Sequence record: PP526765 | Direction: 5' to 3' (one strand) | DNA: 64,000 nucleotides | Origin: Escherichia phage HK3 | Shown: one piece after another, positions 3,398 through 60,076 of the stretch | Layout: each line of letters begins with the position of its first letter | Numbering within the stretch: position 1 is the stretch's first letter | Notes under the pieces: generated by a model | Told to the model about the DNA's origin: nothing | Database searches by the model: none | The model's input: only the letters and a program-made list of their open reading frames with translations | Position numbers and translations under genes: made by a program

Positions 3398-5179
3398 ATG
3401 ACTAAATCACTTTATGCAGTACCAGCAGGTTTAAACGCGGATGCTTACAAGTCTGGCCATATTTATCAGTATCCTAGTGCAACAGAGTACCTAATGTTCA
3501 ACCTGACACCACGTAGTGATAAATGGTTTAACAGCCCTTTAGCAATTGACGGTGTAGTTGCTTTTGGTATTCAACGTTTTGTTAAAGATTACTTGATAGA
3601 CCACTGGAACACCACCTTCTTTGAACGTGACAAAAAAGAAGCAATTGATGAAATCTTAGAAGTCATGAACGGTGTTCTGGGTAAAGATGCTATTGGTCGA
3701 GAACATTGGGAAGCACTTCACGACTTAGGCTATCTACCAGTTGAAGTATACGCTGTAGAAGAAGGCACAGTTGTTCCTATGCGTGTACCAATGATTGTCT
3801 TCCAGAACACTGTTTCAGGTTTCCATTGGGTAGCGGGGTATCTGGAAGATGCTTTCTCTGCTGAGATTTGGAAGGCTTGCACCATTGCAACTATTGCATT
3901 GCACTACAAACGTATCTGTAAGAAGTGGGCTGACCTTACTTGTGACAATGACTTGCATTTGCCTTATCAGTGCCATGACTTTGCTATGCGTGGTATGTCT
4001 GGCTTTACTGATGACGCATTTAACGCTGTAGGCCACTTAACCAGCTTTAAAGGTACTGACAGTTTCCCTACTGTGTATACGGCTAAACGAATCTATGGAC
4101 AGTCCTACCCAATCTCTGATATTGGCAGCTCTGTACCAGCCACTGAACACTCTGTAATGTGTGCAAACATTGCTTGGGAAGGTGGTAATGAGTTGATTGA
4201 AGAAGAAAGACGCTTTAAAGGTGAGTTACAAACCTTCCGTCGTTTCTTAACAGAAACTTACCCAACTGGTATTGCAAGTGTTGTTTCAGACACTTATAAT
4301 TTCTGGAGAACTGTATCAGAAATCTTACCAGCACTTCGCAAAGAGATTATGGAACGTGATGGAAAACTGGTAATTCGTCCTGACTCTGGCGACCCTGTAC
4401 ATATTGTCACAGGCTATAAAGCAATCCACTTAGAGTGCGCTAAAAAAGCTTATTACGAACACCTAAGCAAGCTGGAAGCAAGCGACACAATGTTGAATGC
4501 TGTTCTGAACATGAAGCTTGAAAACATCAGTTATGGTATTGCTGGATGGCTACTGTCAGAAGGCTACGAGATGGTTGTTGACAGAGAAGACTTTGAAGTT
4601 GCTGATACAGTGATGTTGAAAAATGCTTATATGGTTGGCTCTGCAAACGTTGTAACACGTCCTGTAGCAGAGATTGATGGGGCTATTAAGACCCTGTATA
4701 ACATCTTTGGAGGGACTATCAACTCTAAAGGTTTTAAGGTACTAGATGAACACATTGGCCTTATCTATGGCGACTCTATCACGTTGGAACGTGCAAACGA
4801 AATCTTGAAGCGTTTGTATGAAATGGGTTTTGCAAGCTCTAACGTAGTGTTTGGTGTAGGTTCTTACACTTACCAGTACATGACTCGTGACACTTTTGCA
4901 TTTGCTGTCAAAGCAACTCTTGCAAGCATTGGCGGTAAAGAGATTATGCTTGCAAAAGACCCTAAAACAGATAGTGGTGTTAAGAAGTCTGCTTTTGGTG
5001 GTGTAGCGCCTATGTGGGATGGTGATAAGCTGAAAGCTGTAGATGGCTATGGATTCCAGAGCTTTGCAGATGCACTTGAACATCCAGCTTGTGCTTTACG
5101 TTTAGTCTTTAGCGACTCTGAGCAGTTCGGTTACACAACTCTTGGTGATATTCGAAACAATATTGACAAGCAGCTTTAA
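3398..5179 (+). CDS. nadV: nicotinamide phosphoribosyltransferase-like protein (NAMPT/NadV family; possibly Namat type)
   Basis: NAMPT signature stretches SVPATEHS, VVSDTYNFW, IRPDSGDP; track ORF starts at TTG 3380, first ATG at 3398. Confidence 0.85.
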   Translation: MTKSLYAVPAGLNADAYKSGHIYQYPSATEYLMFNLTPRSDKWFNSPLAIDGVVAFGIQRFVKDYLIDHWNTTFFERDKKEAIDEILEVMNGVLGKDAIGREHWEALHDLGYLPVEVYAVEEGTVVPMRVPMIVFQNTVSGFHWVAGYLEDAFSAEIWKACTIATIALHYKRICKKWADLTCDNDLHLPYQCHDFAMRGMSGFTDDAFNAVGHLTSFKGTDSFPTVYTAKRIYGQSYPISDIGSSVPATEHSVMCANIAWEGGNELIEEERRFKGELQTFRRFLTETYPTGIASVVSDTYNFWRTVSEILPALRKEIMERDGKLVIRPDSGDPVHIVTGYKAIHLECAKKAYYEHLSKLEASDTMLNAVLNMKLENISYGIAGWLLSEGYEMVVDREDFEVADTVMLKNAYMVGSANVVTRPVAEIDGAIKTLYNIFGGTINSKGFKVLDEHIGLIYGDSITLERANEILKRLYEMGFASSNVVFGVGSYTYQYMTRDTFAFAVKATLASIGGKEIMLAKDPKTDSGVKKSAFGGVAPMWDGDKLKAVDGYGFQSFADALEHPACALRLVFSDSEQFGYTTLGDIRNNIDKQL

Positions 5180-8475: not shown

Positions 8476-8509
8476 TTTGACAAGGGGCTTCAAAGCCCCT
8501 TAGAATAGC
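8476..8509 (+). promoter_or_regulatory. TTGACA -35 box with hairpin AGGGGCTTCAAAGCCCCT in the spacer and TAGAAT -10 (promoter-hairpin cassette)
   Basis: same hairpin motif recurs in the small-ORF array cassettes. Confidence 0.45.
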
Positions 8510-8550
8510 CTTACAAAATGATTTATTAACTAACAAGAGAGAGTAATAAG

Positions 8551-9657
8551 ATGACTACTAAAACTAAAGCACAGATTGACGCAGAAATCTACAAACTGGT
8601 TAAAGAAGGCAAGCTGACTAAAACAGCTATTGCACAGAAGTTCAATACTTCAACCCGTTCAGTTGGTCGTGCTGTAGAGCGTCATGAAGCAACCTTAAAA
8701 GGTAAGAAAAAGGTAGCTTCGACACCAGCTAAGAAGACTTTGAAGCAAGTTGCTAAGACCTTTAAAAAGAAAGCTGACAAACCAGTTGAAAAGGTCGTTA
8801 AAGAGTCTGTACAGAAAGCTCCAGTAAATAAACTGCATGAAGCTATGCAGAAAGATGACAAGATTGAGTACATGATTACTGGCGACTCTGTAATTATGAC
8901 TTACGGTTCAGAATCTGAAATTGTTGAGTCTACTCATCCGAACTATCAAGAGATTGTAGTTCATGTTGTGAAAGGTGAGTTCAAGAAAGCCTTTGAACTG
9001 ATGAACATTCGTAAGTCTATCGAAAACTTCACTCAGGGTGCTATCACAATCAAAGGCGACAAGTTATTCTACGGTGCTGTTGAGATGCGTTCCACTCTGG
9101 TTGACCGTATCCTTCATATGATGAAGACTGGTGATAAAGGTTTTGAACGACTTGTAATGTTCTTCGAAAAACTGATGGAAAATCCATCTAAAGGTTCTGT
9201 AGAACAACTGTGGGGATTCATATCTCACCTTGATGTTGAAATTGATGAAGAGGGTTACATTATCGGTTGGAAAAAGGTACAAAGTAAAGCTGATGGCTCT
9301 CTGGTAGATAGCCACACTCATAAAGTACCTAATGACTTGGGTAACCTAGTTGAGATGCCTCGTTGGATGGTTGATAGTGACCCTAACCGCACTTGCTCTC
9401 AGGGTTTACATGTTGGTGCATGGGAATACGTATCATGTTTTGGAGGTGATACCATCCTGAAAGTTCGTGTCCATCCACGAGATGTTGTATCTGTTCCGGT
9501 TGATTACAACGATATGAAGATGCGTGTATCAGCTTATGAATCTTTTGCGATTGTTGACAGCAACCGTAAAGTTATCAAGACTCACTCTGGCTCTGGTGGG
9601 CATCGTGTAGTGATTGGTTCTCACGGTGAGCTAATCTCCAAAACACCACGCGTTTAA
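8551..9657 (+). CDS. rIIB: rIIB-like protein
   Basis: immediately downstream of rIIA; size and N-terminal pattern compatible with rIIB. Confidence 0.55.
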   Translation: MTTKTKAQIDAEIYKLVKEGKLTKTAIAQKFNTSTRSVGRAVERHEATLKGKKKVASTPAKKTLKQVAKTFKKKADKPVEKVVKESVQKAPVNKLHEAMQKDDKIEYMITGDSVIMTYGSESEIVESTHPNYQEIVVHVVKGEFKKAFELMNIRKSIENFTQGAITIKGDKLFYGAVEMRSTLVDRILHMMKTGDKGFERLVMFFEKLMENPSKGSVEQLWGFISHLDVEIDEEGYIIGWKKVQSKADGSLVDSHTHKVPNDLGNLVEMPRWMVDSDPNRTCSQGLHVGAWEYVSCFGGDTILKVRVHPRDVVSVPVDYNDMKMRVSAYESFAIVDSNRKVIKTHSGSGGHRVVIGSHGELISKTPRV

Positions 9658-10301: not shown

Positions 10302-10974
10302 TGAAGTGCTGTGTCATGCTTACGACTTGCATCCTCATGAGTTAGGTCTTGATTCCTGTATATGGACTCCAGAACAGTGCAGGGATTTTGAAGACACTGC
10401 AAGAGAGGTTGTATGTTCACTTGAAGAGTTCCACACATCAGAACCAATTGTGAACGTTGTGGACAAAGAGACTGGACAATCTCTAGGTGTAAGACGTGAC
10501 AGTTTAGTCATAGTCAATAAAGACCTTGTAGAAAAAGGTAACCTCATCTTAGCAGATATTGATGGTGTTCTTACAAATTTTAATCACGAAGATTGCTCAA
10601 CGGAATTGACTGATGGGTCATTCTCACAGTACACTAATCTTCTTGACTCTGTAAGAGCAAAACCAACGTATGTTTTTAGTATTATTGATGCAATTGCTAA
10701 TCATGCTGCCATTGGACTCTTGACAGCGAGAGGTGAATCTCAGAGAATACCTACTGAGATGTTTTTAAGGCATAACATAGAGCACGATTACATGCTTTTT
10801 ATGCGTGGTTTTGGAACTAACTCTATAAATGCAGAAAGTTTGAAAGTTAGGATGATTCAGTCTTGCATTCTTCCTTACTTTGATATAGTATGTTTTATAG
10901 AAGATACAGAGAAGAATGTTCAGAAGGTAAACAGAATCCTTCCGCACATTAAAACTATGTTAGTAAAACATTGA
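10279..10974 (+). CDS. HAD-superfamily hydrolase, 5'(3')-deoxyribonucleotidase-like
   Basis: HAD motif I DIDGVL (ILADIDGVLTNF) and downstream T/D motifs; true start may be internal. Confidence 0.4.
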   Translation: MKKLRKSDEVLCHAYDLHPHELGLDSCIWTPEQCRDFEDTAREVVCSLEEFHTSEPIVNVVDKETGQSLGVRRDSLVIVNKDLVEKGNLILADIDGVLTNFNHEDCSTELTDGSFSQYTNLLDSVRAKPTYVFSIIDAIANHAAIGLLTARGESQRIPTEMFLRHNIEHDYMLFMRGFGTNSINAESLKVRMIQSCILPYFDIVCFIEDTEKNVQKVNRILPHIKTMLVKH

Positions 10975-10984
10975 GAGAAAACTT

Positions 10985-11449
10985 ATGAACAATATCATTA
11001 CGGTAGCACTGGACGTTACGGCAAACAAATCTGAAGTAGTTCGTAACATTATCAAAAGCAACTTTGAGGGTAAAATCTTCCGTGCTGTCAATGTAAAAGC
11101 AGATGGTAACATCCGAGAATACCGTGCTCTTCTGAATGTTAAGAAACACGTCAAAGGTGCTGGTTCAACGACTGCACACAAAGAAAACCTGATGACTATC
11201 TATGATATGGGTATGGCTTCAGAGTTAGGTGCTGAAGGTATCGTTAAAGAAGGTGCTCCGTATCGCTCTTTCAATCTGGAAACTGCTCTTATGCTTTCCT
11301 TTACAAGTGGTTCTAAAACAACTACTTATCTCTTTACTGATGCTGCAACGGTATCTGCTATCAAGGATAGCACCGTCAAAGCTGGGGTAGCTGCTGCTGC
11401 AAAAGCTTCTTCGATGGCTGCAAATGTCCTTGCTAAAGTCCTCGGTTAA
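10985..11449 (+). CDS. hypothetical protein (154 aa)
   Basis: ORF track; followed by a strong terminator. Confidence 0.5.
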   Translation: MNNIITVALDVTANKSEVVRNIIKSNFEGKIFRAVNVKADGNIREYRALLNVKKHVKGAGSTTAHKENLMTIYDMGMASELGAEGIVKEGAPYRSFNLETALMLSFTSGSKTTTYLFTDAATVSAIKDSTVKAGVAAAAKASSMAANVLAKVLG

Positions 11450-47623: not shown

Positions 47624-55654
<8,031 letters not shown>

Positions 55655-55656
55655 TA

Positions 55657-56826
55657 ATGGCAGTAGGTGAAATTCAAATTAGTGCCTTGCCTCAAGCAGC
55701 CTTACCGATTGACCTTAGTGATATCTTCCATCTTAAGCAGGGTATTGAGGATAAGAGATGTACTCTTGAGCAACTACTTGCTCCACACTCAAGCTTAAGA
55801 AATAACCCTCATGGTGTTACTAAAACACAAATTGGTTTAGATAATGTTATTAATGCTCTTCAGTTAGTTGCTGCAAATAACTTATCAGATATTGTTAATG
55901 TAGCTGAGGCAAGAAAAAATCTACAGATTATGTCTTCAGAAGAGGTTAATAGTCTTATTCAACAGCATATTAATGACAAGAGCAACCCACACAATACAAC
56001 TAAGGCACAGGTTGGTTTAAGTAATGTCCAGAACTGGACAACATCTAACCTTTATAATGAAGATGCAGATAAGTATGCTACAGCAAGAGCAGTAAATAAC
56101 TTGTACAAGGCTGTTCAGGCTTCTTATCCAGTAGGTACTATCCATCTCTCTATGAATCCTGCAAACCCTTCTACATATTTAATTTGTGGAGGTACTTGGG
56201 AGTTAGTCTCAAAAGGGAGAGCACTTGTAGGTTATGATAGTGATTCTAGGCCAGTTGGTAGTAACTTTGGCTCTAGCAGTGTTAGTTTGTCTAGCAACAA
56301 TTTACCATCACACAGCCATTCTATCTACCTAACAGGTGGGAATCATAGTCATGGTGCAAATGTCTCAGTTAGTGCGTTTGATTATGGTACTAAATCAACC
56401 TCATCATTTGATTACGGTACTAAGACTACAAACACTACGGGTGCTCATACACACTCTGTGAGTGGTTCAACAAATACAACAGGTGCTCACACGCATGGAT
56501 ATGTCACTGGTTACCAAGATACTGGTGCATCAGGTGATTGGGATAGGGATGGACACAGGAATACTGTTCAGACCGATAGTGCTGGTAACCACTCTCACTC
56601 CATCAGTGGTACTGCTGCATCCAATGGTAATCATAATCACACGGTGGCTATTGGTTCGCACTCACACACTGTTGCTATCGGAGCGCATTCACACAATGTA
56701 ACAGCTAGTGTTACTGGAGCCGGAGAACACACCCATTCAGGTACTACCGGTGCTACTGGTGCTGGTCAAGCATTTAGTGTTGAGCAACCATCTTTTGTAG
56801 TTTATGTATGGCAAAGAACAGCTTAA
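55657..56826 (+). CDS. short tail fiber / receptor-binding protein with His-x-His tip domain
   Basis: C-terminal 180 aa carries at least 9 HxH motifs (SHSHS, NHSHG, AHTHS, AHTHG, NHSHS, NHNHT, SHSHT, AHSHN, EHTHS) and ends ...AFSV...W.RTA. Confidence 0.65.
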
Positions 56827-56873
56827 AATTCTTTACAGGGGGCTGTATAGCCCTCTTTCTAGAGGACAAAATA

Positions 56874-59396
56874 ATGGCAGATTACAAATTGAGTCAATTG
56901 AACTCAATCGACACAATCCGTTCAGATGACCTTCTTCATGTCAGAGTTAAAAAGAGACCTGAAATGCTGGGTGATGAAGACCGTCGAATGACCTATCAAG
57001 ACTTCTTAGCGTCTTTTAAACTAGAAAGGTTTGTTCAGATTGCTGGTAGCACTATGACGGGTGACTTAGGAATTGTTAAGTTACTTTATGGTGGCAAGGT
57101 AGTCTTTGACCCTACAGGCTCTTCTGAGATTACTATGGGGGATGTTTTAAAGACTTTTAAAATTAATGCAAATGGTCTTAAACTAACTATTGCAGATGCT
57201 TCAAGGTCTGCAACCGTTTATCATACTCTGAATAAGCCAAGCCCTAATGAACTTGGGATGAGAACTAATGAAGAGAATGATGAAAGATATGCAAGACTTG
57301 CTGTTACAAACTCATTCCAAGCTAAACAGAGTGTCGTAGCAAATGGTGAGCAGTTGACACTGAAGACCCCTGCGGGTGCAAGTGAGGCATACTCCGCTAT
57401 TGTAGGTCGAAATGCCAATAATGATAAAACTTGGGCTGTTGGGAATCTAACTCAAGGAAGTCTTGATGTCCATCTCGAAAACAGCAGAGGTTCAAGAATC
57501 ACTCTAGGTGCAATTGTGTCTGTTAATAAGGCTCTCGCTATTACTGGACAGGTTCAACCTTCTGACTTCTCTAACTTAGATGCTAGATACTTTACTCAGA
57601 CAGTGGCTAATCAGAGATTTGCGCAGTTAGCTGCGAATAACACTTTTAGTGGTTTAAACACCTTCAGCAATTATGTTAGTGTTAGCTCTAATGCTGCCGC
57701 TATCATGCTAAAAAATAAAGCTGTTAATGAATCTTTGTTCATCCTAGCAAAAGATGTTGAAAACAATAACCTGTGGTATATTGGTAAAGGTGGTGCAAAT
57801 GATAATATCACATTTTATGATTACAAGGGTAACACCTCTCTTGTCTTCAACTCATCTGGTGCTGCATTTAACAAACCTGTAAAAATCACTGGTCAAGTTC
57901 AACCCTCTGATTGGTCTAACATTGACGCTAGATACATCCCAGCAGGAACATTAAGTACAATTGCCAGAACTAATGCAAGTAACACGTTCACTGCAAAGCA
58001 GGTTATTAACACTAATGGTGAAGCCCTTACGTTACAAGGAAAGACAACCGCAGCACTTTACATTAGAGGTAAGGATTATGATGGAACGAATAGGTGGTAT
58101 GTTGGTAATGACAGTGAGAGTGACACTCTTAGTGTATATAACTATAAAACTGGTAAAAGCCTAAGCATTGGTTCCGAAGTAGCAATTAATGCAACATTAG
58201 TAATTGATGGTCAAGTACAACCTAGCAACTGGTCTAACTTAGATGCTAGATACTTCACTCAAAGTTCTAGCGACGGCAGATACCTGATAATTAGAAGCGC
58301 AGGCTTTAATTTAGGAGACGGTGAAAAGTGGGCTAAAATTGCTACTGTTGTGATGCCGCAATCAGCATCAACGGCAGTTATTGAGGTTTTTGGTGGCGCA
58401 GGGTTTACTATCAATAAACCAAATCAAGCAGGGAAGTGTGAGATTGTTTTACGAACATCAAATAACAACCCAAAAGGTTTGAATGCTGTAGCTTGGAAAA
58501 CCGCTGAGAATAACATCATCACTGATATCGGTCATGTGAATACGTCTGGTGACACTTATGATATTTACTGTCGAGTTGGTCCGTACCAAAATGGTACAAC
58601 AGCAAGAGTTCAATCTTCTAGTAATGCAAGTGTACAGTTGTTTGAAGTCCCACAGACATTTAATGATGCACCACAAGGTATTGTGAAGGGTACAGTTGCA
58701 AAATACTACACTAGTTTGCAAAAACCAACCCCTTCAGAGATTGGTGCATACACTAAAACTGAAACTGACCAGAAGATTGCACAGGCAGTAAGTGATTCTA
58801 CAGACCTTAATAAAATCTATCCAGTGGGTATTGTGACATGGTTTAACAGTAATGTTGACCCTAATACAGCACTGCCTGGTCTAACTTGGACGTACCTCAA
58901 CAATGGCGTTGGTAGAACTATCAGAATTGCAGCGGCAAACGGTTCAGATGTTGCTACAACTGGTGGTTCAGACTCTGTGACGTTAGCTGTTGGGAACCTG
59001 CCTTCACACACTCACAGTTTTTCTGCTACCACTTCATCTTTTGACTACGGAACAAAAAACACTAACACGACTGGTGCTCACACTCACTCTGTGAGTGGTT
59101 CAACGAATACAACAGGTGCTCACACACATGGTTATACTACTGGTGCGCAACCAAGTGGTACAAGGGGTGATTGGGATTCTGACGGTAACAGGAATACCGT
59201 ACAAACGGGTAGTGCTGGGAATCACTCACACACTGTATCTGGTACTGCTGCATCAAATGGTAACCATGCTCACAGTGTTGGTATTGGTGCTCACAACCAC
59301 ACAGTTAGTGGTAACACTGGTGGTACAGGTTCTGGTTCAGCATTTAGTGTTACTAACCAGTTCTATAAGTTAATGGCTTGGGTGAGAACTGCTTAA
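56874..59396 (+). CDS. long tail fiber with three internal shaft repeats and a paralogous His-x-His tip
   Basis: GQVQPS(D/N)(F/W)SN(L/I)DARY repeated near 57540, 57895, 58210; C-terminus mirrors that of 55657..56826; ATG 56874 preferred over track start 56808. Confidence 0.65.
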
Positions 59397-59475: not shown

Positions 59476-59673
59476 ATGCCTACAATCCTAGCAATTATTC
59501 TAAAAAATCTAGGTAGCTTCTTCTGGAAACTCATTTTATCCCTTCTAAGTGAATACATGATTGAGAAAGTGTTCTTTAGGCTTGCAAGATACCTTGCTAG
59601 TAAAACAGACACACCTATTGATGATGAGTTCGTAGATAACTTAGAAAAAGCTTTTAAGGGGGAGAATAAATGA
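59476..59673 (+). CDS. small membrane protein (65 aa; holin-like?)
   Basis: single hydrophobic helix then charged C-terminus. Confidence 0.35.
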   Translation: MPTILAIILKNLGSFFWKLILSLLSEYMIEKVFFRLARYLASKTDTPIDDEFVDNLEKAFKGENK

Positions 59674-60041
59674 AGTGGCTAGAGGAAGCTTTTAAAAATA
59701 ATATTGGTGCAATTGTAGTAGGTATTTTTAGTGTTATTGGGATGTATACCACAATGCAGGTTGCAAGTGGTAAACAAGAAGTGTCTATCACAACAAAGTT
59801 ACAGCAGCTAGATAATTATTCCAAAAGTAACTATTCAGCTATTCGTGATTTACAGTCTGACATGAGATTGCTTCAGCTAGGGATGGAGAACCAGAAAGTT
59901 CAGTTAGAGAATGTTAAGGGTGAGAACGCAAAACTTACTAAGACTCTTGATAAGTTCTCTGACAGTGTGAACAATCTGGCTCAATCAGTATCAGCCCTCC
60001 AAGCTATTACTGAAAAGAACACAAAGAGTACTGAAAAGTAA
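59670..60041 (+). CDS. N-terminal TM helix plus helical C-terminal region (123 aa)
   Basis: ORF track; coupled to previous ORF. Confidence 0.4.
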   Translation: MKWLEEAFKNNIGAIVVGIFSVIGMYTTMQVASGKQEVSITTKLQQLDNYSKSNYSAIRDLQSDMRLLQLGMENQKVQLENVKGENAKLTKTLDKFSDSVNNLAQSVSALQAITEKNTKSTEK

Positions 60042-60047
60042 AGTTTA

Positions 60048-60076
60048 AGGCTCCTTTTTACGGGAGCCTTTTTTGT
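60048..60076. terminator. hairpin terminator between convergent units (likely bidirectional)
   Basis: AGGCTCC-TTTTTACG-GGAGCCT hairpin with T-run on plus and A-run upstream. Confidence 0.65.

Follow-up and report, generated by a model that had tools for sequence, protein, structure and literature searches.

Adjacent short and long tail fibre genes of a Felix O1-like phage carry gp37-type tips and probably diversify by cassette exchange

The genome of Escherichia phage HK3 (sequence record PP526765) carries two adjacent genes with the appearance of tail fibres, which raises the question of what kind of fibres these are, why their ends resemble each other, and whether the repeats within and between them serve recombination. 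We analysed a stretch of 64,000 nucleotides from this record, referred to here as the window, in which position 55657 is the A of the ATG of the first gene, encoding a short tail fibre (STF), and position 59396 is the end of the stop codon of the second, encoding a long tail fibre (LTF). The features of the locus are collected in Table 1. We consider it very probable that the window holds an STF and LTF pair with T4 gp37-type tips, diversified by homologous exchange of cassettes between phages and between fibres.

Table 1. Features of the fibre locus, in window positions; LTF residues follow the 840-aa protein
Feature	Positions	Strand	Basis or remark
100-aa protein upstream of the fibres	55352..55654	+	phrog_4141 (E=3e-62); gene order
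STF gene, 389 aa	55657..56826	+	phrog_2097 (E=7e-144); annotated tail fiber in JH2, JLBYU28, mio, BPS17L1
STF collar domain, about residues 157-215 (YPVGTIHLS...)	56125..56301	+	Gp10_C PF21939; T4 gp10 C-terminus
STF needle, outgoing strand, HxH 1-4 (residues 219, 230, 264, 278) and two FDYGTK units	56302..56496	+	
STF head cassette, residues 281-311 (31 aa)	56497..56589	+	Predicted receptor-contacting hairpin turn
STF needle, return strand, HxH 5-9 (residues 312, 326, 335, 344, 358)	56590..56742	+	
STF C-terminal segment and stop codon	56743..56826	+	Predicted return to collar (Bas63 and T4 structures)
Intergenic RNA hairpin	56829..56866	+	-17 kcal/mol, z=-2.6
LTF gene, 840 aa from MADYKL	56874..59396	+	phrog_4277; ribosome-binding site; annotation of relatives
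LTF shaft repeat 1, residues 127-239	57252..57590	+	Body 99% identical to unit 1 of L007
LTF shaft repeat 2, residues 240-354	57591..57935	+	T7 gp17 (4A0T); body 91% identical to unit 2 of L003 and BPS17L1
LTF shaft repeat 3, residues 355-460	57936..58253	+	Best relative just 59% identical
LTF middle module, residues 461-648	58254..58817	+	Predicted beta-sandwich, then helix
LTF collar domain, about residues 649-708	58818..58997	+	BLASTP to STF collar
LTF needle, outgoing strand, HxH 1-3 (residues 712, 736, 750) and one FDYGTK unit	58998..59129	+	
LTF head cassette, residues 753-783 (31 aa)	59130..59222	+	Same type as STF head
LTF needle, return strand, HxH 4-6 (residues 784, 798, 807), C-terminal end and stop codon	59223..59396	+	

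The window comes from a Felixounavirus, a Felix O1-like myovirus. Over the structural module (30000-52000) it shares 96-97% identity with many Felixounavirus genomes, the PHROG families of its genes agree with those of Felixounavirus relatives, and matches were found in 234 phage records. The fibre pair follows the genes of the baseplate wedge: wedge 2 comes first, then wedge 1, the platform, the STF and the LTF (489, 285, 100, 389 and 840 aa). This is the order of gp23-gp27 in Bas63, and it is also found in JH2, JLBYU28, mio, BPS17L1 and 28 IMG/VR loci; the pair corresponds as well to gp76/gp77 of Felix O1. Judged from this gene order, the 100-aa gene is the counterpart of Bas63 gp25, the 'LTF platform'. 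Two small genes downstream of the fibres belong to PHROGs of unknown function, and one of them is annotated as a holin in relatives. The T4 fibre consists of four proteins; gp37 forms its distal quarter and depends on gp38. In the present phage each tip is part of a fibre made of one protein. A tblastn search across the window found no T4 gp38-like chaperone, and assembly of these fibres may therefore differ from that in T4.

The listed open reading frame (ORF) of the LTF begins at 56808, within the STF gene, and this start is probably unused. We prefer 56874 because GAGGA lies 8 nt upstream of it, because the phrog_4277 profile begins its alignment at ORF residue 23 (E=0, residues 23-862), and because annotated relatives start the LTF about 47 nt past the STF stop. 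In the intergenic hairpin, the 3' arm and the GAGGA ribosome-binding site for the LTF overlap.

The initial annotation, made from the sequence alone, had proposed that both fibres end in a domain packed with HxH motifs like those of the T4 gp37 needle. We found that STF residues 146-359 match residues 18-229 of the T4 gp37 tip structure 2XGF in a phmmer search of the PDB (E=1.7e-27), as does the LTF (E=3.8e-18), and BLASTP against full-length T4 gp37 gives an alignment to its residues 893-1013 with 52% identity. The homology to T4 extends over collar, needle and head, with the FDYGTK and GxHxH boxes and a C-terminal ...R(T/L)A in common. The HxH motifs of both fibres align one for one with those of 2XGF. 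Where T4 has seven, the STF has nine, retaining counterparts of all seven and adding two, one per strand, and the LTF has six, lacking the last motif of the return strand. Among 69 aligned homologues (37-95% identity) the histidines are conserved: those at STF 219/221 and 312/314 are invariant, and those at the other STF sites are present in 39-64 of the 69. All 34 related genomes carry such motifs, with 7-9 in the STF and 4-7 in the LTF. The homology to 2XGF, the aligned motifs, the conserved histidines and the agreement with the cryo-EM study of Bas63 together uphold the proposal that both fibres end in a gp37-like HxH tip. The length given for the HxH-rich domain, about 170 aa, holds for the STF, but in the LTF the domain spans just about 130 aa. 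The collar of the STF scores 70.5 bits against Pfam Gp10_C PF21939 (cut-off 27) and matches the T4 gp10 C-terminus by PDB sequence search, and hits to Pfam Gp10_C and Phage_fiber support its assignment. The LTF collar scores 21.1 bits against Gp10_C, under the cut-off, and aligns to the STF collar by BLASTP.

The sequence layout of both tips is consistent with a hairpin topology. We infer the trimer state, hairpin topology, metal occupancy and receptor, the topology and trimer state from the crystal structure of T4 and from cryo-EM of Bas63. Each protein would form trimers that attach to the baseplate through the N-terminus and bear a T4 gp37-type receptor-binding tip at the other end. The tip would comprise a collar followed by a needle of six strands, each chain passing along it once in either direction, and the HxH motifs of the three chains would stack into octahedral sites for metal, which in T4 is iron. 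Nine metal layers are predicted for the STF and six for the LTF, T4 having seven; the STF needle would then be longer and the LTF needle shorter than that of T4. At the hairpin turn, a small head would contact the receptor, for this genus a lipopolysaccharide structure; the literature describes Felixounavirus as targeting LPS. We predict that the receptor-contacting head is the loop between HxH 4 and 5 in the STF and between HxH 3 and 4 in the LTF, and that the AFSV...RTA terminus goes back to the collar, the chain doubling back as in gp37-type tips. The original identification of a receptor-binding tip was thus right as to the type of tip, but the head is placed at a mid-sequence hairpin turn and not at the C-terminus. 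The STF head aligns with the gp37 head segment YIEAWNGTG...SNTNAAG. The head sequences of T4 are unrelated to those of this phage. The head position of the STF is hypervariable among relatives, and its C-terminal end is conserved in 34 of 34 genomes and comparable to the T4 end ...NIAFNYIVRLA.

An AF2 monomer model of the STF tip, built from the 69-sequence alignment, was of moderate quality (pLDDT 72, pTM 0.35). Foldseek matched its collar to the T4 gp10 C-terminus (probability 0.99, E=0.07), and this search of the PDB with the monomer did not recover the 2XGF needle. Matches of the modelled needle to pore-forming toxins were rejected as spurious long-hairpin similarity. Given its moderate quality and a match confined to the collar, we did not use the model as evidence for the needle fold.

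The HxH arrays probably bind metal, although the identity of the metal and its occupancy are not readable from sequence, and this leaves room for a reading in which the arrays are a structural sequence repeat without iron, holding another metal such as zinc, or none. The HxH number among homologues ranges from 4 to 11, so that single sites appear dispensable. T4 gp12 uses an HxH site for zinc. We nevertheless consider the non-iron reading unlikely, given the strong homology to 2XGF with its one-to-one alignment of HxH, and the two motifs invariant in 69 homologues, the T4 equivalents of which coordinate Fe. The same motifs hold Fe along the needle of T4 (Bartual et al. 2010, cited in PMC12609058).

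The similarity between the two tips of this phage is significant. STF residues 157-339 and residues 671-833 of the LTF ORF share 54% identity over 185 aa (BLASTP with composition adjustment, E=6e-52). In DNA the tip repeat has an offset of 2633 nt. The ranges compared at first, 56420-56520 and 59040-59140, were 13 nt out of register, and the identity of about 85% ascribed to them was a slight overestimate: in register, 56420-56520 and 59053-59153 are 79% identical, and identity over the whole 276-nt repeat (56398-56673 and 59031-59306) is 77%. Its best 30-nt bin reaches 93%, and at most 20 consecutive nucleotides match exactly. Both heads are of one type, GDWDxDGxRNTVQT, and are identical at 22 of 31 residues (71%) and at 70% of nucleotides. 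As the same head type stands on both fibres, the two probably share a ligand or bind very similar ones; with heads just 70% identical in DNA, a common receptor is plausible, not certain. The common head in this phage is probably an older, diverged copy.

Comparison of fibre alleles across related phages, which the initial annotation had recommended, uncovered a mosaic identity profile with cassette swaps and conversion tracts. Among 34 genomes there are about 16 types of head cassette. The STF head of this phage with its flanking needle (73-aa query) is 100% identical in amino acids to that of JH2, and its LTF head shares 97-99% of nucleotides with those of JH2 and mio (97% for JH2). In two relatives the STF and LTF of a single genome share exact tracts, 189 nt long in BPS17L1 and 113 nt in L004, that end in DNA coding for FDYGTK and HxH. 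These tracts indicate gene conversion, since they are exact within a genome while copies in different genomes are about 86% identical.

How this phage itself came to have two similar tips can be read in two ways. Each fibre could separately have taken the same head cassette from other phages and been selected for one receptor, with no duplication or conversion in this genome. Heads move horizontally, as seen in the LTF tips of L018 and L007, whose DNA matches T4 gene 37 at 93% and 88% identity, respectively; the LTF heads of this phage, JH2 and mio cluster together, with the STF heads apart; the STF and LTF heads of this lineage are just 67-82% identical to each other; and A132 and JLBYU28 carry a GDWD-type head on the STF only. 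We regard separate acquisition as possible but doubtful, because two relatives with another shared head type, BPS17L1 and L004, bear the exact tracts that mark intragenomic conversion, and because wherever an LTF bears a 'shared' head type the same type is found on its own STF (8 of 8 genomes). We lean instead towards the view that, in Felixounavirus, the two fibres of one virion swap heads by gene conversion anchored in His-box and FDYGTK DNA. This would give rise to 'twin-headed' phages whose two fibres bind one ligand, of which this phage would be an older, diverged example and BPS17L1 and L004 fresh ones. More generally, fibre diversity would arise when cassettes are exchanged by homologous recombination, either from phage to phage or between the STF and LTF of a single genome. 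Crossovers would fall in conserved DNA, at the HxH and FDYGTK boxes and in the linkers, collar and termini. The classical model of His-box recombination is reportedly that of Tetart et al. from 1998. A full-text literature search did not find the term 'His box', and the literature that we surveyed held no description of head exchange between STF and LTF. The catalogue of about 16 head types and the exact STF/LTF tracts are modestly new.

In the shaft of the LTF, the proposed unit of about 110 aa does occur three times (113, 115 and 106 aa, 33-42% pairwise identity, z=20-31 in 300 shuffles), and each copy ends in a linker, GQVQPS(D/N)(F/W)SN(L/I)DARY, found at nt 57546, 57891 and 58209. Pfam PF20744 (gp37_trimer) matches the LTF three times (168.8 bits, cut-off 21.7), and a profile of the three repeats matches T7 gp17 residues 369-435 (E=2.6e-6). 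In sequence, the shaft showed no resemblance to T4 gp34, gp35 or gp36 (for gp34, no BLASTP match at E<=1e-3), and the gp34 chain was absent from a PDB profile search with the shaft repeats (E<=1). The shaft would thus be built of three T7-gp17-pyramid-like domains joined by GQVQPSxxSNxDARY linkers and followed by a beta-sandwich module, in place of which JH2 and mio have an unrelated, shorter module.

Repeats of this kind had been put forward as substrates for recombination that alters host range. The shaft does contain three direct 68-nt repeats in its DNA, with 71-74% identity and spaced 345 and 318 nt apart, at which unequal recombination could alter the number of repeats and the length of the fibre. 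We hold it highly improbable that the three repeats are an active substrate of this sort. The repeat bodies within the genome are only 22-28% identical, and across phages bodies at the same position are 59-99% identical whereas the best match between positions is 30-44%. Genomes in which the linker can be scored have at most three units, at the same positions, and the Bas63 paper reports sequence variation, not variable repeat number (PMC12609058). On this comparison of identity and copy number we rejected both exchange between repeat positions and varying repeat number; the shaft units are exchanged position for position between phages and are not recombined with each other. Fibre repeats as recombination substrates are therefore supported for the tips, by the cassette swaps and the exact tracts in relatives, but not among the three shaft repeats.

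The architecture of paired fibres with gp37-type tips has already been published for the genus, and in this sense the finding is correct but ordinary. Similarity to gp37 was noted earlier, in 2010 and 2015, and papers on VpaE1 and Felix O1 remarked on it. The 2025 cryo-EM study of Bas63 described an STF and an LTF, each with a collar, needle and head like those of gp37 and a chain folded back on itself, and a repeated shaft (PMC12609058). Bas63 (Escherichia phage JohannRWettstein; STF gp26, LTF gp27) shares genus, gene order and two-fibre architecture with this phage, but its STF bears seven HxH, against nine in this phage, and its LTF six together with an HHxH, against six here. It also has different heads on its two fibres, as do the alleles L002 and L006, in contrast to the single type found here. 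The LTF of this phage, at 840 aa, differs from that of Bas63 in its beta-sandwich middle module. The Bas63 LTF has been described as having five beta-helix repeats; in this phage, sequence analysis detects only three. The Bas63 authors liken the LTF rod structurally to T4 gp34 (5NXH; PMC12609058). Our shaft repeats each match PF20744, and their profile matches the pyramid domain of T7 gp17 (4A0T, 4A0U, 7BOZ); T7 carries a single domain of this kind, immediately below the tip, whereas here three stand in tandem with a conserved 15-aa linker. The closest tip allele is that of Escherichia phage JH2 (KF055347; JH2_079 and JH2_078), the LTF of which has 781 aa and differs in its middle module and shaft-repeat bodies (25-55% nt identity in those bins).

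Fibres determine the host range of Felix O1-type phages, which matters for the typing of Salmonella and E. coli, for biocontrol and for therapy. Our result is mainly one of annotation, in that it separates a scaffold from the 31-aa loops that are the likely determinants of specificity, and it suggests the HxH boxes as cut sites for engineering. The comparative by-products extend a known principle and do not overturn it: the roughly 16 head types, the needle variants of 4-11 layers and the copying of heads between fibres could guide the prediction of host range and the design of chimeras.

Across the structural module (30000–52000), HK3 was 96–97% identical to many Felixounavirus genomes, and it is a Felix O1-like myovirus. 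Its fibre region matched 234 phage records at only 84–93% identity and 66–88% coverage. The gene pair for a short (STF) and a long (LTF) tail fibre was present in 28 of 28 IMG/VR loci and in five GenBank relatives, with 7 or 9 His-x-His (HxH) motifs per STF and 4, 6 or 7 per LTF. The top coverage of the fibre region (88%) came from ‘Campylobacter phage A132’ (MG065664.1), a record that GenBank flags UNVERIFIED and assigns to Ounavirinae; the fibre region of A132 resembles that of Felixounavirus, and the Campylobacter host label is doubtful. In the window, genes for wedge proteins of 489 and 285 aa, a 100-aa protein, STF and LTF follow one another in an order identical to that of gp23–gp27 of Bas63, a Felixounavirus with published cryo-EM fibres (PMC12609058). 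No gp38-like fibre chaperone gene was detectable within the 64-kb window of this roughly 87-kb genome.

The PHROG profile match of the LTF ORF as listed begins only at ORF residue 23, the ATG at 56874 is preceded, 8 nt upstream, by a GAGGA ribosome-binding site, and in annotated relatives LTF starts ~47 nt past the STF stop. Together, these place the LTF start most likely at this ATG, giving MADYKL as the first residues, and the 22-codon extension upstream is probably not translated. A stable RNA hairpin between the two genes (−17 kcal/mol, z = −2.6), whose 3′ arm overlaps the GAGGA site, might adjust the ratio of STF to LTF or work as a weak terminator. Of two small membrane-protein genes 3′ of the fibres, several relatives annotate the one assigned to phrog_4038 as a holin.

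Coordinates of features in and around the two tail-fibre genes of HK3
Feature	Coordinates	Strand	Remarks
STF gene	55657–56826	+	389 aa
LTF ORF as listed	56808–59396	+	862 aa; adjacent to STF, overlapping it at its start
LTF gene (most likely)	56874–59396		840 aa
LTF ORF extension	56808–56873		22 codons; begins within STF gene
RNA hairpin	56829–56866		between STF stop and LTF start
Tip direct repeat	56398–56673 / 59031–59306		276 nt
+1-frame ORF in STF tip	56462–56701		79 aa
+1-frame ORF in LTF tip	59095–59373		92 aa
Whole LTF shaft	57252–58253
Shaft unit 3 body	57936–58253
LTF middle module	58254–58817		188 aa, between repeat 3 and collar
Two small membrane-protein genes	59476–60041		65 aa (phrog_402) and 123 aa (phrog_4038)
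Terminator-like hairpin	60047–60070

The initial annotation proposed that the two fibres share a duplicated HxH tip, and this was borne out by a significant C-terminal alignment, in which STF residues 157–339 were 54% identical to residues 671–833 of the LTF ORF (BLASTP, E = 6e-52). Both also end in the AFSV...W.RTA terminus. At the DNA level the tips form one ungapped direct repeat that is 77% identical, reaching 93% in the best 30-nt bin and containing a longest exact run of 20 nt. The repeat is real, but the earlier estimate of ~85% identity was slightly too high; the two ranges compared were 13 nt off the correct register (a 2633-nt offset), and the same 101-nt stretch is 79% identical in register. 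Two parallel +1-frame ORFs inside the tips appear to be by-products of the His-box DNA duplication and not genes.

Both fibres carried Pfam Gp10_C (collar; in LTF below the gathering cut-off) and Phage_fiber signatures, and both matched the crystal structure of the T4 gp37 receptor-binding tip (2XGF; E = 1.7e-27 for STF and 3.8e-18 for LTF) with the T4 HxH motifs lining up with their own, supporting their reading as tail fibres with gp37-like tips. STF has nine HxH motifs and LTF six. All seven motifs of gp37 have counterparts in STF, which adds one on the outgoing and one on the return strand of the needle, whereas LTF retains six, the final one of the return strand being absent. Searching with the STF tip gave 1014 database proteins (E ≤ 1e-5); their sources were Felixounavirus, phages of Erwinia, Pectobacterium and Yersinia, and prophage side fibres of E. 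coli and Salmonella. The histidines were conserved in an alignment of 69 of these matches (37–95% identical, 6 to 11 HxH per protein): they were invariant at STF 219/221 and 312/314, and the other seven STF motifs had histidine in 39–64 of the 69. Because the segments between the innermost HxH motifs (STF 281–311 and LTF 753–783, the latter in 840-aa numbering) align with the gp37 head, the receptor-touching part in T4, and the C-terminus corresponds to the part of gp37 folding back to the collar, the physical fibre tip would be a mid-sequence loop, though the HxH domain ends the sequence. With an AF2 monomer model of the tip, the needle fold was not recovered; for both fibres, topology, receptor, trimer state and metal binding are predicted by homology.

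In LTF, the motif GQVQPS(D/N)(F/W)SN(L/I)DARY occurs three times and bounds units of 113, 115 and 106 aa, confirming the threefold ~110-aa unit proposed from the sequence. The units were 33–42% identical, with alignment scores 20–31 SD over shuffled controls, and each matched PF20744 in Pfam (three stretches, 168.8 bits). A profile built from all three repeats matched the T7 gp17 pyramid domain (4A0T, 4A0U, 7BOZ residues 369–435; E = 2.6e-6). The shaft showed no detectable sequence similarity to T4 gp34; according to the Bas63 authors, their LTF shaft resembles the rod of gp34 in structure and has five beta-helix domains (PMC12609058). Pfam and PDB sequence searches with the middle module gave no match, and its homologues, ~40% identical, were fragments of tail fibres from prophages of Salmonella and E. 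coli. AF2 predicted a beta-sandwich (pLDDT 68, pTM 0.64), for which the best Foldseek match was the tailspike-like WceF domain (6TGF; E = 5e-6, query TM 0.54); the model also resembles a domain of Acinetobacter phage tailspikes. In JH2 and mio, two GenBank relatives, a shorter module unrelated to it takes its place. The HK3 module may provide a second glycan-binding site on the side of the fibre.

A 60-nt identity profile of HK3 against five relatives separated conserved regions (83–100%), comprising the N-terminal baseplate-binding regions, collars, termini and GQVQPS...DARY linkers, from regions of abrupt change, comprising the repeat bodies (37–72% where diverged), the middle module and the heads. 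For each repeat body the best relative lay at the corresponding position of another phage: unit 1 was 99% identical to the fibre locus L007, unit 2 was 91% identical to locus L003 and to BPS17L1, and for the unit 3 body none of 26 scored genomes exceeded 59% aa identity. Taken whole, the shaft was at most 73% identical (aa) to any GenBank phage record in the searched collection. Same-position identities of 59–99%, against 30–44% across positions, show that shaft repeats are shuffled between phages as position-specific cassettes. The initial annotation regarded the repeats as substrates for recombination that alters host range; we found no evidence of recombination among the three repeats, or of change in their number.

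The heads, the loops between the innermost HxH motifs, fell into ~16 types among 34 genomes. Within GenBank, the HK3 type, GDWDxDGxRNTVQT, was confined to JH2, JLBYU28, mio and the ‘unverified’ A132. Only two types were found on both fibres, and in 8 of 8 genomes whose LTF bore such a type the STF had the same one (‘twin heads’). BPS17L1 carries an exact 189-nt STF/LTF tract (2257–2445 = 4891–5079) and locus L004 one of 113 nt (8497–8609 = 10956–11068), whereas copies in different genomes were ~86% identical; the ends of the exact tracts fall in the boxes coding for HxH and for FDYGTK, a conserved needle box. Such exactness within a genome suggests recent gene conversion between STF and LTF in these two phages, the alternative being assembly homogenisation. 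In HK3 the STF and LTF heads shared 70% nt identity, and the LTF heads of HK3, JH2 and mio clustered together at 97–99%, so in HK3 the sharing either goes back further or came about through separate acquisition. Over a 287-nt stretch of T4 gene 37 (nt 2692–2978), LTF tip DNA was 93% identical in L018 (10859–11145) and 88% in L007 (10868–11154), which lie on Felixounavirus contigs in IMG/VR (88,403 and 87,372 bp). A head-plus-needle cassette is thus common to Ounavirinae and Tevenvirinae, and cassette exchange also reaches across subfamilies.

Similarity to gp37 was noted for gp76 and gp77 in the Felix O1 genome paper (2010) and for both fibres in the VpaE1 paper (2015), which saw the likeness to the T4 adhesin at the protein level. 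Cryo-EM of Bas63 (2025, PMC12609058) described STF and LTF trimers with a common gp37-like collar, HxH needle and head, and reported the number of HxH motifs, a chain that doubles back and a shaft built of repeats. The genus is known to bind LPS and not protein receptors. The HK3 fibre pair is therefore already known in kind and represents one more allele, in which nine plus six HxH motifs go with twin heads and an LTF of 840 aa bearing a predicted beta-sandwich module. The suggested gene conversion and the twin-head pattern are the sole part that may be new.
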